The notes beneath the pieces were generated by a model. The model was not told where the DNA came from and searched no databases. It was given only the letters and a program-made list of their open reading frames with translations. The position numbers were made by a program, and so were the translations under genes. 40,212 nucleotides of DNA from an uncultured bacterium (GTDB lineage Bacteria > Latescibacterota > Latescibacteria > Latescibacterales > Latescibacteraceae). This document shows, in pieces, positions 3,044 to 29,764 of this stretch (its first letter is position 1; every line of letters begins with the position of its first letter). The stretch lies in NCBI GenBank assembly GCA_964400815.1, contig CAYNWJ010000004.1, forward strand, positions 1 through 40,212, written 5' to 3'.

Positions 3044-4216
3044 TCATTTCCCGGCGCGGGAGTACAGATACGACCGTCCGCCGGCCGGGGGCGTGAAATT
3101 CGGTGACGAGCCCAGTTCCTCGAGCAAGCTCCGCTCATGGTCCGTGAGCCGTTTGGGGGCGGCGATCCAGATGCGGACGATCATGTCGCCCGAGCCGGTT
3201 CCGTTGAGATGCCCGATGCCCTTGCCGCGTAGCCTGAGCCTGCCGCCCGACTGGGTCCCCGCCGGAATCGTGAGACGCGCCTTTTTGCCGTTGAGAAGAG
3301 GGACGTCCACGGTGTCGCCGAGCGCAGCCTGGGATATGGATACGGGGAGATCGTGGATGACATCGTCGCTCTGACGTTCGAAGAGATCGTGCCGCTGCTC
3401 CTCGATGATCACGATGATGTCGCCGGGAGGGGCGTTCCGGACGCCGGCGTCACCCTGTCCGCGCAGGGTCAGATAGTTGCCGTCGGCGACACCCGCGGGG
3501 ACAGTGACGGACAGTGTTTCCTTCTTTCGAACGCGCCCGGTGCTCTCGCACTGTCCGCAGGGATCGCCTATGATGCGCCCTTCTCCGTTGCATACAGTAC
3601 AGGGTTCCACCGACATGAAGGTGCCGAAACGGCTCTGGCTCTGCTTCTGCACTTCCCCGCGGCCATTGCAGCTCGGGCAGACACGGTATCCCGCGCCGCC
3701 GGACGATCCCGTCCCCCCGCAGGAGGCACAACGGACGAAGTGTGAAATCCTGATCTTCTTTTTCGTTCCTTCGGCGATCTCCTCCAGGGTGAGCCTGAGG
3801 GTGATGCGAAGATCGGCGCCCTTTTTCTCCACGGGGCGCGCCCTCTGTGACGGCCGCCGTGCACGGCCTGACCGTCCACCAAAGAAATCACCGAAAATCG
3901 AGCCGCTGAACAGGTCGCTGAAAATATCGTCGAAATCCCCGGCGTGTGAGAAGTCCTGCCAAGTGAATCCTCCCTGCTCCCCGGAAAATGAGCCCTTGAG
4001 TCCCTCTTCACCGAAACGGTCGTATTTCTTGCGCTTTTCCGGGTCCGAAAGGACCTCGTAGGCCTCGGCCGCCTCCTTGAATTTCTCCTCGGCCGCCTTG
4101 TCGCCCTTGTTGCGGTCGGGATGATACTTCATGGCCAGCTTGCGGTAGGCCTTCTTCACCTCGTCCGGGGAGGCGCTTTTGTCTATGTTCAGAATGTCAT
4201 AATAATTTTTTCCCAT
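3044..4216 (-). CDS. dnaJ: molecular chaperone DnaJ (type I Hsp40)
   Basis: 390 aa. J-domain with KYHPDRN, a G/F-rich linker and four CxxCxGxG motifs ([32 protein letters not shown]). ATG at 4216 with GAAGAGG upstream. Confidence 0.97.
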
Positions 4217-4340
4217 ACCTCTTCTTCCAGCGTTTGTTTTCTTCTGTGAACAGGCTTTTGAGCCTTCAACGGGAAAACGGGAGAATCATGGCGTCTCCAC
4301 GGGACCATCGTCCGGGAGATATTTCCAGAGTCCGTTTCCG

Positions 4341-4496
4341 TCATCTCACATAGCCCGTTCCCTTGCAGAAAAGACATTTTTTCGTGGAAATGATCTTGTT
4401 CTTTCCTTTATTGAAATACCGGTATTCCGACACATATCCCCGTCCCTTGCAGGCCTGACACACGACCTGCGCCGTTCTCGACTGATAGTCAGCCAT
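4341..4496 (-). CDS. 51-aa mini zinc-finger protein with two DnaJ-type CxxCxGxG motifs
   Basis: Below the ORF-track size cut-off. My translation is MADYQSRTAQVVCQACKGRGYVSEYRYFNKGKNKIISTKKCLFCKGTGYVR*. ATG at 4496 is preceded by AGGAG with a 9-nt spacer, and the stop is TGA at 4343-4341. It lies 124 nt upstream of dnaJ on the same strand. Confidence 0.6.
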   Translation of the reverse strand: MADYQSRTAQVVCQACKGRGYVSEYRYFNKGKNKIISTKKCLFCKGTGYVR

Positions 4497-4662
4497 GGGC
4501 GTTTTCTCCTGATAAACGATAACCCCTGTGAATGTTCCATGTCATATATACCGGTAACTAATATGCAACTTTTTTATCATATATGAAAATGCAAAGTTTA
4601 TGCCAACAGAAAGAATGATGGCATCGGATTGCATATCAACGCATTACCAATCACACCACAGA

Positions 4663-4690
4663 GGGCGTCCTGTCACGCCCCTGCTTTTTT
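4663..4690 (+). terminator. orphan intrinsic-terminator-like hairpin
   Basis: GGGCGT(4663-4668)/ACGCCC(4675-4680) form a 6-bp GC stem with a 6-nt loop, followed by CTGCTTTTTT. No plus-strand gene lies upstream. Confidence 0.35.
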
Positions 4691-5162
4691 GGCGGCGCCC
4701 ATGTCGTTTCGGCAGGCCTTTGTGCGTTTTGGTGCTGCTCCGGAGCTGTGCCGTGCTGAACGCCGAAACGTTTGTCAGGGCATCGGGCATGCTCATGGTG
4801 AGTGATTGCGGTTCCGCCGTGTCACCGGTCAATCACGGCCGGTCCTGTTGAACCGTTGTTGTCCCGTGATCGGCGGCATGCTGCCAGGGGTTTCCGAAAA
4901 CAGACGTAACCCGCGCGCGGATTCAGGAAACCTCCTGCGTTGCGGAGGCGTATACTCAATACCTGCCGCAAAGGTGCGACAGCCTGTCGAATCGGGCCTG
5001 TGTTGACATCGTGTCGTTTGCTGCGCCTGCTTAGGAAGAGGGCAACACAGTGATTTGGAACGATTTTTCGATAGATATATGATTTCAATAAGAAAAGATT
5101 CTTTGAACTATTGATGAAACCGCATGTAACCGATGCTGTCGCCGATGGAAGAATGACGATTG

Positions 5163-5309
5163 ACCGACCGCCGTTTGAACCATGATTTATGGGATTCAAG
5201 GATTGACAGGATTCTAATCGCGGTTCATCCCGTAATCCTGAAAATCCCGGTTCAGAAACTGAAAAGCCTCGAAATATTAAGTTTGTGCTGGAAAATGGGG
5301 GATTGCCAG
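5163..5309 (+). repeat. promoter-upstream repeat element, copy A (upstream of purA)
   Basis: By eye it aligns at roughly 90% with the reverse complement of 17695-17804, and over its whole length with the reverse complement of 29308-29450. Core: GGATTGACAGGATTCTAATCGCGGTTCATCCCGTAATCC...GGAAAATGGGGGATTGCCAG. Confidence 0.85.
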
Positions 5310-5324
5310 GCGTATTTTTTTTAC

Positions 5325-5353
5325 TTGACGCGGACGCTCTGAAAATTTATTAT
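5325..5353 (+). promoter_or_regulatory. sigma-70-type promoter candidate for purA
   Basis: TTGACG (5325-5330), 17-nt spacer, TATTAT (5348-5353). An alternative TATAAT lies at 5353-5358. Confidence 0.4.
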
Positions 5354-5357
5354 ATAA

Positions 5358-6695
<1,338 letters not shown>

Positions 6696-8495: not shown

Positions 8496-10952
8496 ATGAC
8501 CACTGCCGGGAAACAACACCGCGAAACGGGTGACACACAGCGCTCCCGTCTGCTTCTGACCCATGCGCTCAAGCTCATCAACGCTCCCCTTGTGGTGGAA
8601 GAACGCCTCCAGCTTCTCGCAAAAATCATCGCCGATTATCTCAAGGTGGACGATGTCGTCATTTTCCTCAAGGAGGAGAAAGAGGATGTCCTCGTCATGC
8701 GCACCTCCGTGGGCCTTGGAGCCATGGCGGTGGGAAATGTCAAGATTCCGATCGGGAAGGGTGTGACGGGTCTTGTGGCGAAGAACAAGGAATATATCGC
8801 CACCCGGAACATCAACAAGGACCCGCGCAATTTCTATTCCCTCCTTTCAGAAGATGAAAAATATCCGTCGATTCTCTCCTTTCCCATTCTTCACGGCGAT
8901 GACCTCCTGGGTGTGGTCAACATCAGGAGCAAGGAGGAGCGCGATTTCACCCCCCAGGAAGCACAGGAGCTCAACAATTTCACCGCAGGCATCGCCGGGT
9001 CCATCATAAACGCCCAGACCCACGAGCGTCTCGAATACAAATCTCGGCTTCTCGAGCTCTCCATCACCATCGCCCAGGCGGTCACCTCGACCCTCGACAT
9101 CGACGAAATACTCGAGGACGTGGCATGGGAGATCGGCAACGGTTTCAGCCTGAACGGCGTCATCATCCACCTCATGGACGAAACAGGGGAAATCAAGAAA
9201 TCGGGTTCCTACGGCCTCAAAAAGAGCTTCGTGAACAACTATCCCCTCGATGTGGCAAAAAGCTGCGTCATAACGGGCGAGCCGAAGATACGCCGGCTCG
9301 ACACGGATGAAGGAAGTCTTCAGCCGCACGCCCCCGACACCTGGAACATCTGCCTTCCCCTGATCAGCCGCAACCGCAACCTGGGTGTCATCAGCCTGTT
9401 CGGCATCGATGAAACGAGCGATGACCGCGGCGGCCTGTTCCGCTCCATCGGCGTGGACGTGCTCCTGCACATCGCGGGTCTTGCCGCCCTCGCCATTGAA
9501 AACGCCACCATACATTCCGAACTCAAGCGGCTCGCCGACGAGGAAAAGAAGAAGCTCGACGTCATCGGGCTCATGTATTCCCGTGTATCGGCCGTCTTCG
9601 ATTCCATCTCCGACGGCATCATCGGTGTGGACGAGCATGGTGTCATCCATGATTTCAACGAAGTCGCCGGTACGATGCTGGGGCTTGCGCGGGACACCAA
9701 CTGGTCGAAAAAGATCGACGACATCACCTCATACAAGCCGTCCCTCTCATCGATCATCGCCGAAGGCAAGGAATTGACCAACAGGGTGATCACCTTCCTG
9801 ACCCCGAAGGACAAATTCGCCGCTCTTGTAACCATGCGATCCTATAAGGACTCTTCGGGGGAGCGCCGTGGCAGCGTGGTTTCCTTCCGCCCCATGGAGG
9901 AAACTGTGAAGATGCTCTCACGTTTCTCGTCACAGCGGCCGAAATACACGTTCGAGGACATCATCGGCCATGACACGTCGCTTGCCGAAACAGTCAAGCT
10001 TGCGAAGATCGCCGCGCAAAGCAAGTCAAACATACTCATCGTCGGAGACAGCGGAACGGGTAAAGAACTCTTCAGCCAGTCGATTCACAACGCATCCGAC
10101 GTGGTCGACGGTCCCTTCATTCCCGTAAACTGCGCGGCGATACCCAACGACCTGATCGAGAGCGAACTGTTCGGCTACGACGAAGGGGCGTTCACCGGTG
10201 CGCGCAAGGGCGGCTATATCGGAAAATTCGAACAGGCCACCGGCGGAACCATCTTCCTCGACGAAATCGGTGACATGCCGCTGGACCTCCAGGTGAAGCT
10301 CCTCAGGGTGCTTCAGGAAAAGGTCATCCAGCGCGTCGGGTCCGAACACATCATCCCCATATCGACTCGGGTGATTGCAGCGACGAACCGTGATCTGAAA
10401 AAAGCCATCGCCGAAGGCTCGTTCCGCGAGGAACTGTATTGGCGGCTGAACGTGATCACAATCGAGATTCCACCGCTGCGTGAACGTCGTGTCGATCTGC
10501 CCGCATTCCTGGACCATTTCATCGACCGTTTCGCCCGGGCCAACGACAAGGATGTCAGGGGGATCGATCAGGAAAGTATCAGACGGCTCATCGACTATAC
10601 ATGGAGCGGCAACATCCGCGAGTTGGAAAACGCCGTGGAACACGCGGTTCTCGTCACACAATCCGAAACCATCACGTGGAACGACCTTCCCTCGAACCTG
10701 CGCGAACGGTATGAAGAGGAGCATTCCACGCGCTCGACCGGAAACGTCATCGACAATGCGAAACGAGAACGGGCCGAGTCATCCGCAAAACTCTACCGTG
10801 AAGCACTGTACCAGTGCGGTGGCGATGTTGATGCCGCGGCACACAAGCTCGGAATCAGCCGTGCGACGATGTACCGCCGCATGAAAAAGTACGGTATCAC
10901 GGCTGAAATATCAAAAATCAGGCATGATTTCAAAAATGATACAATCGGCTGA
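8496..10952 (+). CDS. sigma-54-dependent transcriptional activator (GAF-GAF-PAS-AAA+-Fis HTH)
   Basis: 818 aa. Walker A is GDSGTGKE and the sigma-54 contact loop is ESELFGYDEGAFTGA (GAFTGA). Other motifs are RELENAV and the C-terminal HTH LGISRATMYRRMKKYGI. About 500 aa of N-terminal sensor region carries GAF- and PAS-like segments. Confidence 0.92.
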   Translation: MTTAGKQHRETGDTQRSRLLLTHALKLINAPLVVEERLQLLAKIIADYLKVDDVVIFLKEEKEDVLVMRTSVGLGAMAVGNVKIPIGKGVTGLVAKNKEYIATRNINKDPRNFYSLLSEDEKYPSILSFPILHGDDLLGVVNIRSKEERDFTPQEAQELNNFTAGIAGSIINAQTHERLEYKSRLLELSITIAQAVTSTLDIDEILEDVAWEIGNGFSLNGVIIHLMDETGEIKKSGSYGLKKSFVNNYPLDVAKSCVITGEPKIRRLDTDEGSLQPHAPDTWNICLPLISRNRNLGVISLFGIDETSDDRGGLFRSIGVDVLLHIAGLAALAIENATIHSELKRLADEEKKKLDVIGLMYSRVSAVFDSISDGIIGVDEHGVIHDFNEVAGTMLGLARDTNWSKKIDDITSYKPSLSSIIAEGKELTNRVITFLTPKDKFAALVTMRSYKDSSGERRGSVVSFRPMEETVKMLSRFSSQRPKYTFEDIIGHDTSLAETVKLAKIAAQSKSNILIVGDSGTGKELFSQSIHNASDVVDGPFIPVNCAAIPNDLIESELFGYDEGAFTGARKGGYIGKFEQATGGTIFLDEIGDMPLDLQVKLLRVLQEKVIQRVGSEHIIPISTRVIAATNRDLKKAIAEGSFREELYWRLNVITIEIPPLRERRVDLPAFLDHFIDRFARANDKDVRGIDQESIRRLIDYTWSGNIRELENAVEHAVLVTQSETITWNDLPSNLRERYEEEHSTRSTGNVIDNAKRERAESSAKLYREALYQCGGDVDAAAHKLGISRATMYRRMKKYGITAEISKIRHDFKNDTIG

Positions 10953-11131: not shown

Positions 11132-11147
11132 TGGCATTCTTATTGCT
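11132..11147 (+). promoter_or_regulatory. sigma-54 (-24/-12) promoter
   Basis: TGGCAT-TCTTA-TTGCT. GG (11133-34) and GC (11145-46) are separated by exactly 10 nt, matching the consensus TGGCAC-N5-TTGCW. Confidence 0.6.
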
Positions 11148-11157
11148 TAATCATATA

Positions 11158-11304
11158 AATGAATTTGACAGTGCCCTCGTGGAGTGCGGGGATAACCCAA
11201 AAAAAATGATCCCATCGACTTGCGCAGGGCACTAAAGAATTTTATTGTACCCCTTTCAAATAGATGAAAACCCCGAAAAACAAATTTTTTCGGGGTTTTT
11301 TTTT
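11158..11304 (+). ncRNA. candidate sigma-54-dependent small RNA (~145 nt)
   Basis: Delimited by the -24/-12 promoter and a strong terminator. Closing helix AGTGCCCT(11170-77)/AGGGCACT(11226-33). No SD-preceded ORF. The next gene is convergent. Confidence 0.45.
11267..11304 (+). terminator. strong intrinsic terminator
   Basis: AAAACCCCGAAAAA-CAAA-TTTTTTCGGGG followed by T9 (11296-11304). The A-tract on the 5' side makes it potentially bidirectional. Confidence 0.75.
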
Positions 11305-11332
11305 ATCCGGGTATCAAGTTAAGTCAGCATTT

Positions 11333-11359
11333 ATTCATTCTCATTCGCGCCATTGAAAA
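11333..11359 (+). repeat. 27-bp direct repeat, copy 1 (inside the MITE-like element)
   Basis: ATTCATTCTCATTCGCGCCATTGAAAA, with 26/27 identical to 11529-11555. Confidence 0.9.
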
Positions 11360-11528
11360 TACCATGTATTGTATAACCCCTCCGTCACTGGCGTGACACC
11401 TCCCCTGACAGGGGAGGCCATGTTCACCAAGCGCAGGAAGCACATGGTCCCCCCTATTTCAGGGGGGATACGGCCGACAGGCCGAGGGGGGTTAAAAAAT
11501 ACTCCGTGCATCACGGCATTCAGCACCA

Positions 11529-11555
11529 ATTCATACTCATTCGCGCCATTGAAAA
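11529..11555 (+). repeat. 27-bp direct repeat, copy 2
   Basis: ATTCATACTCATTCGCGCCATTGAAAA, offset 196 nt from copy 1. Confidence 0.9.
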
Positions 11556-11654
11556 GCTAATAAAGCATGTTTTCCAGTCATTGCTTACGTAACTTGATAC
11601 CCGGATTTTTTATCCCACTTGGAACCATCCTGTTCCGCGTCAATTCGTCAGAAA

Positions 11655-17650: not shown

Positions 17651-17678
17651 AATATAATGAATTAATTTTTGAAAGCAA
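17651..17678 (-). promoter_or_regulatory. sigma-70-type promoter candidate for leuS
   Basis: On the minus strand: TTGCTT (17678-17673), 16-nt spacer, TATATT (17656-17651). Confidence 0.4.
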
Positions 17679-17694
17679 GGAGGGGAAACGATAA

Positions 17695-17804
17695 CTGGCA
17701 ATCCCCCATTTTCCGGCACAAACTAATATTTCGAGGTTTTTCAGTTTTGAACCTGGATTTTCGGGAGTACGGGATGAACCACGATTACAATCCTGTCAAT
17801 CCTT
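17695..17804 (-). repeat. promoter-upstream repeat element, copy B (upstream of leuS)
   Basis: CTGGCAATCCCCCATTTTCCGGCAC...GGGATGAACCACGATTACAATCCTGTCAATCCTT. A larger unit, 17695-17855, is bracketed by the perfect 13-bp direct repeat GGGGAAACGATAA (17682-17694 and 17856-17868). Confidence 0.85.
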
Positions 17805-17948
17805 ACTTTATAATAGCTTATGTGAATTATCCGATGGGTTTTTGGGGGGTGCGTCGGGGAAACGATAAATCGAACTGGTTGTTTCAGGGGATTGCGGACT
17901 GGGGAATCCCGGAAAGAGGGACGGTGGAGAAAAGGCGGTTGATCCGGG

Positions 17949-29265: not shown

Positions 29266-29294
29266 AATATACTATTTCTTATTATCCCAGTCAA
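29266..29294 (-). promoter_or_regulatory. sigma-70-type promoter candidate for hisS-aspS
   Basis: On the minus strand: TTGACT (29294-29289), 17-nt spacer, TATATT (29271-29266). Confidence 0.4.
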
Positions 29295-29307: not shown

Positions 29308-29450
29308 CTGACAATCCATCATTTTCCGGCAAACACATGTATTTCAATGGCTTTCAATTGCCGAACCGGGATTGGGGATTACGGGATGAACCGTGATTGC
29401 AATCCTGTCAATCCTTCAATCCCAACAATCATGGTTCAAGCGGTGTTCGG
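29308..29450 (-). repeat. promoter-upstream repeat element, copy C (upstream of hisS)
   Basis: CTGACAATCCATCATTTTCCGGC...GGGATGAACCGTGATTGCAATCCTGTCAATCCTTCAATCCCAACAATCATGGTTCAAGCGGTGTTCGG. A larger unit, 29308-29539, is bracketed by TCATTGC(A/G)TG (29298-29307 and 29540-29549). Confidence 0.85.
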
Positions 29451-29764
29451 ATGCATCCTGCATGAATTTTGGATATAACACCATAATTCATAGTATCATA
29501 ACTTTGAATTATACGGTGGATTGCCGGGGGGATAGCCGGTCATTGCGTGTAAACAAAATAATTGAACCTCGATCGGGAAATTCGCTTCCAATACGGCAAC
29601 AGCGGTTGTGATGACCGGTGCGCCGTTCGTATATTTGCCATGATGTATCGGAGGGCGCCTCCCGTTTCCAGTGAATATTCCAGCTTTCCTGTCGGTAATA
29701 TGTGTATGTTTGAGAAACAGAATGTGAAATACGCGCCCTCAGATGAATCGAAGGGAAGGTGTTG

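Follow-up and report, generated by a model that had tools for sequence, protein, structure and literature searches.

Organization of the locus

The window, by which we mean the whole 40,212-nucleotide stretch of Latescibacterota DNA that was analyzed, contains three copies of a short repeat, called here A, B and C. All of them are intergenic and are positioned upstream of genes identified by Pfam as purA (adenylosuccinate synthetase), leuS (leucyl-tRNA synthetase) and hisS (histidyl-tRNA synthetase), respectively. The closest proteins to the three gene products are 87%, 83% and 77% identical to them and are annotated as Candidatus Latescibacterota (WS3). Each copy has the same orientation toward its gene, with a ...GGATTGYCAG end that stops a short distance before the -35 box of a sigma-70-type promoter (Table 1). 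The distance from the CAG end to the start codon is 108 nt for purA, 119 nt for leuS and 113 nt for hisS. Only four 10/12 sigma-70 matches were found in the window by the promoter scan, and they include the purA and hisS promoters; the leuS promoter, which is below the scanner threshold, was read by eye. An earlier note on this DNA had given the same gene assignments, promoter sequences, distances and start-codon spacings, all of which proved to be accurate.

A 51-residue open reading frame at 4341 - 4496 (-), containing two CxxCxGxG motifs that resemble the DnaJ zinc finger, is located directly upstream of dnaJ (3044 - 4216) and htpG (1033 - 2934). A sigma-54-type promoter match, TGGCAT-N5-TTGCA, at 4590 - 4605 (-) points to this reading frame. 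The region between the dnaJ-side promoter and copy A (4606 - 5162) is non-coding and unexplained over its ~550 nt. The stretch 11133 - 11300 (+) contains a perfect sigma-54 promoter, TGGCAT-N5-TTGCT, just downstream of the gene for a sigma-54 activator with a GAF-PAS-AAA-HTH_8 architecture (8496 - 10952). The promoter is followed by ~130 nt and a very strong bidirectional terminator (11266 - 11300), and three relatives (L001 ~15745, L002 ~15649 and L003 ~8280 (-)) have kept both the promoter and some of the sequence after it. The region has no Rfam match and is a candidate for a sigma-54-dependent small RNA encoded beside its activator. The T-run of its terminator carries a second MITE-like element of ~302 nt (11305 - 11606), which has 25-nt terminal inverted repeats (92% complementary) and two internal 36-nt direct repeats at 11324 - 11359 and 11520 - 11555.

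Table 1. Positions of the repeat copies, their subfeatures and the adjoining promoters (window coordinates unless a locus of the second genome is named)
Feature	Position	Strand	Evidence or remark
Copy A (purA)	5163..5309	+	nhmmer E = 1.4e-48; alignments
Imperfect palindrome within copy A	5176..5254	+	sequence reading, antisense nhmmer self-match, fold
Promoter-proximal terminal motif GGAAAATGGGGGATTGCCAG, copy A	5290..5309	+	position-weight scan
purA sigma-70-type promoter TTGACG-17-TATTAT	5325..5353	+	promoter scan; 15 nt past element
leuS promoter TTGCTT-16-TATATT	17651..17678	-	by eye; 16 nt past element
13-bp target-site duplication TTATCGTTTCCCC, right copy	17682..17694	-	abuts ...GCCAG end of copy B
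Copy B (leuS), 161-nt insert	17695..17855	-	left module 17855-17805 + core 17804-17695
13-bp target-site duplication TTATCGTTTCCCC, left copy (copy B)	17856..17868	-	exact repeat
hisS promoter TTGACT-17-TATATT	29266..29294	-	promoter scan; 13 nt past element
Copy C (hisS), longest version, ~232 nt	29308..29539	-	nhmmer, alignments
Repeat of ~97 nt in the second genome, purA	L054 22312-22220	-	
Repeat of ~97 nt in the second genome, hisS	L005 2078-2174	+	

Extent and variation of the three copies

The earlier note had regarded the three stretches as copies of one element and had proposed a profile search as a check. An nhmmer profile of the three copies, run on the 40-kb window, bears this out, giving exactly three strong matches (E = 1e-48 to 3e-44) at 5163 - 5309 (+), 17695 - 17839 (-) and 29308 - 29451 (-). 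Beyond these, nothing in the window fell below E = 1e-4 except weak antisense self-matches, which arise because the element contains an internal imperfect palindrome. The identity across the common ~110 nt is 92% between A and B, previously put at about 90% by eye, 80.5% between A and C, and 78% between B and C. The copies are 147 nt (A), 161 nt (B) and ~232 nt (C) long, and their GC content is 43 - 45%, compared to 57% for the window. The extent originally assigned to copy A coincides with the nhmmer match, but those of B and C had been underestimated, as B occupies 17855 - 17695 and C extends to ~29539 (-).

Copy C is the most complete version. Its left end, CCGGCTATCCCCCCGGCAATCC, consists of two overlapping inverted copies of the end motif, and its right end is GGAAAATGATGGATTGTCAG. 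The 51-nt left module of copy B (17855 - 17805) is homologous to the far-left part of C, with a local alignment score of 38 compared to 16.7 +/- 3.0 for shuffled sequences (0/2000 shuffles scored as well). The counterpart of the module in C lies ~75 nt to the left of the boundary that the earlier note had drawn, and copy C is therefore ~232 nt long (29539 - 29308). The core of copy B (17804 - 17695) carries the high identity with A, whereas ~65 nt of C, as well as the outer arms of the palindrome, are absent from B. Judged from these alignments, copy B is an internal-deletion derivative. The homology of copy A to copy C begins at 5164, and A is left-truncated, lacking the left-end module of B and C; neither a left end nor a duplication belonging to copy A was found in 4217 - 5162.

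The palindrome of copy A has the form TGAACC..GGGATT..AGGATT / AATCCT..AATCCC GGTTCA and includes three forward GGATT and two reverse AATCC pentamers, the positions of which had been reported correctly (GGATT at 5192, 5200 and 5209; AATCC at 5234 and 5243). There are six GGATT/AATCC units per copy. In every copy the homology stops abruptly at ...CAG, and the promoters beyond this point are unrelated to each other. The three copies are deletion and truncation variants of a single element.

Target duplication and termini

Copy B is bounded by a perfect 13-bp direct repeat, TTATCGTTTCCCC, whose two copies adjoin the 161-nt insert on either side without a gap. Such repeats are infrequent in the window, where a 13-mer recurs within 250 nt at only 20 of 79,798 positions. 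The leuS copy, at least, was inserted with a 13-bp duplication of its target. When the insert and one of the repeats are removed, the leuS spacer becomes 200 nt long, which is similar to the 237-nt spacer of the relative L003, and the reconstructed spacer aligns clearly with that of L003 only from the promoter onward. The flanks of copy C, ACGCAATGA (29548 - 29540) and ATGCAATGA (29306 - 29298), match in 8 of 9 positions with a 1-nt offset and an ambiguous register. The duplication is thus 13/13 at B, the youngest copy, compared to ~8/9 at the older copy C, and its imperfection at C fits the greater age of that copy.

The element has weak terminal inverted repeats. In copy C the left end, GGCTATCCCCC, matches the right end of A and B, GGCAATCCCCC, in inverted orientation at 10 of 11 positions (shuffle p ~0.03 - 0.05), and the left end of copy B gave no significant match. 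The left ends begin with GAC in B and CCG in C, whereas the right end, ...CAG, reads 5'-CTG inward. Read inward, the promoter-facing end is 5'-CTGGCAATCCCCCATTTT, also written 5'-CTG(G/A)CAATCCCCCATTTT.

Empty sites in relatives

Relatives were compared using the syntenic contigs L001, L002, L003, L005/L054, L095/96, L097 and L098. The purA site is empty in L001, L002, L095/96 and L098, where both the promoter and the leader hairpin are conserved; the purA promoter is also conserved in L054. The leuS site is empty in L003, in which the -10 box and the next 26 nt are 96% identical to the window, and in L054, where no promoter was seen in the spacer. The hisS site is empty in L097, which has the TTGACT-17-TATATT promoter, and the same promoter is present in L005. 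Since the promoters are conserved in relatives that are free of the element, they existed before its arrival and were not supplied by it. The possibility that the element provides the -35 box was likewise rejected, because the duplication at copy B separates the element from the -35 box and the element-free relatives keep their promoters.

The purA leader hairpin, TTCGAGCA....GCTCGAA followed by a run of eight Ts (5363 - 5392, +), is terminator-like and is positioned almost at the start of the leader. Its stem is conserved and its loop is variable in six Latescibacterota genomes (L001, L002, L054, L095/96, L098), making it a candidate transcription attenuator. The gene order upstream of purA differs between the window, where the dnaJ side is found, and all the relatives examined, which have the pyrF side (a gene for a small membrane protein, and pyrF). 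It is at this break in gene order that copy A is truncated on the left.

A shared terminus in a second genome

JGI contig Ga0366834_1007077, to which the loci L005 and L054 belong, shares synteny with the window, and its purA, leuS and hisS are 86%, 80% and 69% identical to those of the window. The contig contains no copy of the window element. The conserved end of the element, however, is present there at two of the three genes and is the only part of the window element common to the second genome. This end is ~22 nt long, GGAAAA..TGGGGGATTGYCRG, and finishes with 5'-...CAG. The purA gene of the second genome has GGGAAAAAAATGGGGGATTGTCAG (L054 22243 - 22221) 14 nt upstream of the -35 box, and hisS has GGGGAAAAGTGGGGGATTGCCGG (L005 2153 - 2173) 13 nt upstream of the -35 box. 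In both places the motif terminates a different repeat of ~97 nt. The ~70 nt upstream of the motif are clearly related between L005 and L054 (score 48; shuffles 16.4 +/- 3.1, 0/1000) and have no homology to the window element.

The hisS element in L005 has a perfect 10-bp inverted repeat, CCGGCAATCC/GGATTGCCGG, with the inverted CCGGCAATCC 411 nt upstream, although such 10-mers are not rare in GC-rich DNA. The 13-nt flanks of this element show seven consecutive matches in register (7/13). A terminator-like hairpin with a T-run is located just before the shared end motif in the ~97-nt repeat. The stem is CGGGG...CCCCG in one copy and CAGGG...CCCTG in the other, which amounts to one compensatory change.

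The repeats at purA and hisS are 70 - 80% alike within each genome but are unrelated between the genomes outside the last ~22 nt. Different repeats thus end alike at the same position relative to the promoter, and the ~22-nt end is therefore the conserved unit. This pattern also led to the rejection of purely vertical inheritance of ancient insertions at purA and hisS. It calls either for sub-families with a common terminus that repeatedly colonized the same places beside the promoters or for gene conversion among the copies. The preservation of ~22 nt at the same place in another genome argues for some function of the end, which might bind a transposase as the terminus of the element, serve as a co-opted upstream promoter site, or do both.

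The end motif is missing or decayed at purA of L001, L002, L095 and L098, at hisS of L097, and at leuS of L003 and L054. At the place where the motif would be expected at purA, L001 (~9905 - 9925) and L095 (~1525 - 1545) have GAAAAACATGG(G/A)AAGTATAA, which may be a decayed remnant or a coincidence.

Placement relative to the promoters

When both genomes and all three genes are considered, the end of the repeat is found 13 - 16 bp from the -35 box, facing the same way, in 5/5 cases. The individual spacings are 13, 13, 14, 15 and 16 bp, corresponding to ~100° of helical rotation. If insertion were uniform over the ~100 - 200 nt upstream, three copies would fall into a 4-bp window at the -35 box with P ~1e-5, an estimate derived from spacer lengths. 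The promoter-adjacent placement is clearly non-random, as the earlier note had maintained from the single orientation and the narrow range of end positions, although it is based on three to five sites only. Two causes of the placement remain: either the transposition machinery prefers DNA just upstream of the -35 box, or insertions are maintained at no other place, e.g. if an end motif beside the -35 box is neutral or beneficial. The retention of the 22-nt end at purA and hisS of the second genome is compatible with targeting and with selective persistence alike.

Searches for further copies and for a transposase

The core of the element, GGATTGACAGGATTNNAATCNNGGTTCA, has no exact match in 185,579 GTDB species genomes and none in JGI metagenome contigs, collections that do not include the genome of the window itself. 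An exact search for the end motif in the same GTDB genomes gave 48 matches, which is about the number expected by chance; they belong to unrelated taxa and none is from Latescibacterota. The end motif followed by a spacer and TTG matched 40 times in the JGI metagenomes, and all of these are coincidences within coding sequence (e.g. glycosyltransferase and HD-domain genes). IMG/VR yielded only coding coincidences in prophages and one low-GC hairpin, and a BLAST search of plasmids gave no meaningful match. Across GTDB, JGI and IMG/VR, the exact end motif was no commoner than expected by chance and never turned up in Latescibacterota. The 40-kb window contains no transposase gene.

Two coding readings and one promoter reading were also discarded. 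The element has only short open reading frames, which are not conserved between the copies, so that it is not expected to encode a small peptide. The 161-residue 'gene' called upstream of hisS in L005 looks spurious, being of low complexity and having no homologs. A sigma-54 promoter does not fit the end motif, because the spacing, judged by eye, disagrees with TGGCAC-N5-TTGC on either strand. Genuine sigma-54 promoters are present at other places in the window.

Comparison with known elements

Prokaryotic MITEs have been defined and their general features described with examples such as Chunjie of Geobacter, QMITE1/2 of Coxiella and MITEAba12 (PMC10969869). Like them, the window element is shorter than 500 bp, non-coding, AT-rich and intergenic (PMC10969869). 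It also resembles them in having size variants, which include 5'-truncated and internally deleted copies, and in the direct repeat that flanks the youngest copy. The conservation of termini alone between sub-families is similar to the type II MITE pattern. Unlike those MITEs, the window element has weak or ambiguous inverted repeats and no known parent insertion sequence. We know of no description of these MITE families in which the elements all face one way and end 13 - 16 bp before a -35 box.

The Correia elements (CREE) of Neisseria are small repeats that are mostly found immediately upstream of genes and can influence neighboring promoters (PMC10969869). The window element is likewise a small repeat upstream of genes. 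Correia elements have clear terminal inverted repeats, insert at TA, and possess their own promoters and an IHF site. In contrast, the window element has no sequence similarity to them, no detected outward promoter, a ~13-bp duplication without TA and weak inverted repeats, and the host promoter predates it.

The end of the window element resembles the outside end of IS10, CTGATGAATCCCCTAATGATTTT (CTGA.GAATCCCC...TTTT), but the comparison is short and post hoc, and ~0.5 - 1.2% of shuffled sequences score as well. The IS10 end itself was confirmed beside the IS4-like transposase on plasmid R100. IS10 makes 9-bp duplications. In the IS4 family the duplications measure about one helical turn, 10 - 13 bp in the IS4 subgroup, and ends of the IS10/IS50 type start with 5'-CT (PMC2266710, Table 1). 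The right end of the window element, which reads 5'-CTG inward, and its 13-bp duplication are similar to those of the family; on the other hand, a transposase gene is missing from the window and a CT start is not clear at the left ends. An IS4-type origin is possibly indicated by the end sequence, as a lead rather than as proof of membership.

The ERIC/IRU and REP/REPIN sequences of Proteobacteria are, similarly to the window element, dispersed intergenic repeats of ~100 - 130 nt with an imperfect palindrome. ERIC/IRU and REP/REPIN are mostly located in transcribed regions or downstream of genes, and REPs are short, GC-rich and tied to RAYT transposases. The window element differs from ERIC and REP in its AT-richness, its location upstream of promoters and its flanking duplication, and it has no sequence similarity to these repeats. 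As a functional analogy only, the arrays of Fis sites in the upstream activating sequences of rrn and tRNA genes are comparable, in that a multi-site array is present at about -50 to -200 of strong housekeeping promoters. Unlike the Fis arrays, the array in the window does not have a fixed spacing to the -35 box and is a recently duplicated, inserted sequence.

Origin of the element

The three copies are probably members of a family of small (~110 - 230 bp), AT-rich, non-coding, non-autonomous MITE-like transposable elements, and we estimate the probability of this reading at about 60%. A promoter-targeting MITE was one of the alternatives put forward in the earlier note. The MITE part of the proposal has the best support of these alternatives, coming from the 13-bp duplication at leuS, the empty sites with intact promoters, the size variants, the AT-richness and the non-coding character of the element, whereas the targeting part is deduced from three sites in the window and two in the second genome. 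An element of this kind would be mobilized in trans and would duplicate ~13 bp of its target. Its conserved end would be the recognition site of the transposase supplied in trans, possibly one of the IS4 type. Insertion would be directed to the ~13 bp that directly precede the -35 box of active sigma-70 promoters, or would be retained only there, and the conserved end may have a further role as an upstream promoter element. The weak inverted repeats, the lack of a transposase in the window, the absence of a recognizable left end or duplication at copy A, the imperfect duplication at copy C and the failure of the searches in GTDB, JGI, IMG/VR and plasmids to yield further copies speak against the MITE reading. 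So does the occupation of purA and hisS in two lineages by repeats that resemble each other more within than between genomes. Furthermore, the uniform orientation and the 4-bp window at the -35 box are not predicted by plain transposition.

The repeat might instead be a cis-regulatory module of the host, in which the GGATT(G) repeats and the 22-nt motif bind a putative activator or architectural protein that co-regulates purA, hisS and leuS. The long similarity between the copies would then result from duplication or gene conversion of the module. We consider this explanation unlikely but possible, and it is compatible with a mobile origin. The motif is kept at purA and hisS of the second genome, even though the surrounding non-coding DNA has diverged beyond recognition; the orientation is the same at all five sites; each copy has its six pentamer units; and the genes are functionally related through translation and purine supply. 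Nevertheless, the motif is absent or decayed in most relatives despite their conserved promoters, and its exact form occurs at chance level among the GTDB genomes and not at all in those of Latescibacterota. The variation of the spacing to the -35 box between 13 and 16 bp, with the large rotation that it implies, argues against a strictly phased activator site. Finally, selection for binding sites fails to explain 80 - 92% identity over more than 100 nt together with a 13-bp duplication.

The regular placement may also be taken at face value, as the product of a transposon that homes to promoters. A contact with promoter-bound RNA polymerase or sigma factor, or a local DNA distortion, could for example steer its transposase to the DNA that adjoins the -35 box of active sigma-70 promoters on the upstream side, and purA and hisS would have been colonized independently in two lineages by sub-families sharing a terminus, which possibly acquired a role as an upstream promoter element. 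Among bacteria, such a transposon would parallel Ty3, which integrates at Pol III promoters. As a specific extension of the MITE reading, it is tentative and rather unlikely.

A spread without transposition, with gene conversion or illegitimate recombination carrying the segment upstream of one promoter to the others, appears improbable. It would agree with the closer similarity of the purA and hisS copies within than between genomes, which is seen in both genomes, with the weak terminal inverted repeats and with the fact that only three copies are seen. However, it is at odds with the clean edges of the insert and the perfect target duplication at leuS, and with homology that ends abruptly at ...CAG next to unrelated promoters; conversion would moreover require prior homology at leuS, which is lacking in the relatives.

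The least probable of the explanations, and one that we regard as very improbable, is a multi-copy gene for a small RNA or a cis-acting RNA on either strand: the internal palindrome could form a hairpin, multi-copy small RNAs also show homogeneity within a genome, and the repeat of the second genome has its terminator-like hairpin with a compensatory change, but at E <= 5 Rfam gives no match for region A and nothing beyond noise for B and C, the single-sequence folds of either strand are no better than shuffles (z-scores of -0.2 to -1.7), RNAalifold consensus folds of both strands show compensatory changes in 0/29 predicted pairs, copy B has lost the outer arms of the palindrome, and the window copies contain no conserved promoter or terminator. 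The divergent small RNA gene suggested earlier thus finds no support. At the gathering score, Rfam 15 recognizes only two tRNAs in the whole window and nothing in the element.

Significance

To our knowledge, Latescibacterota is a phylum known only from metagenomes and without genetics; a MITE-like family in the window would be the first family of interspersed repeats to be described from it and would help to trace rearrangements in its genomes. As a kind of element the repeat is ordinary; it is the fixed promoter-adjacent position that is unusual, and this would be notable if it holds genome-wide. If the position results from targeting and not from survivorship, it would reveal how promoter architecture is read by a bacterial transposon and how mobile DNA remodels the sequences in front of core housekeeping genes. 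Should it result from selection, the 22-nt end is a candidate for a new upstream promoter element.
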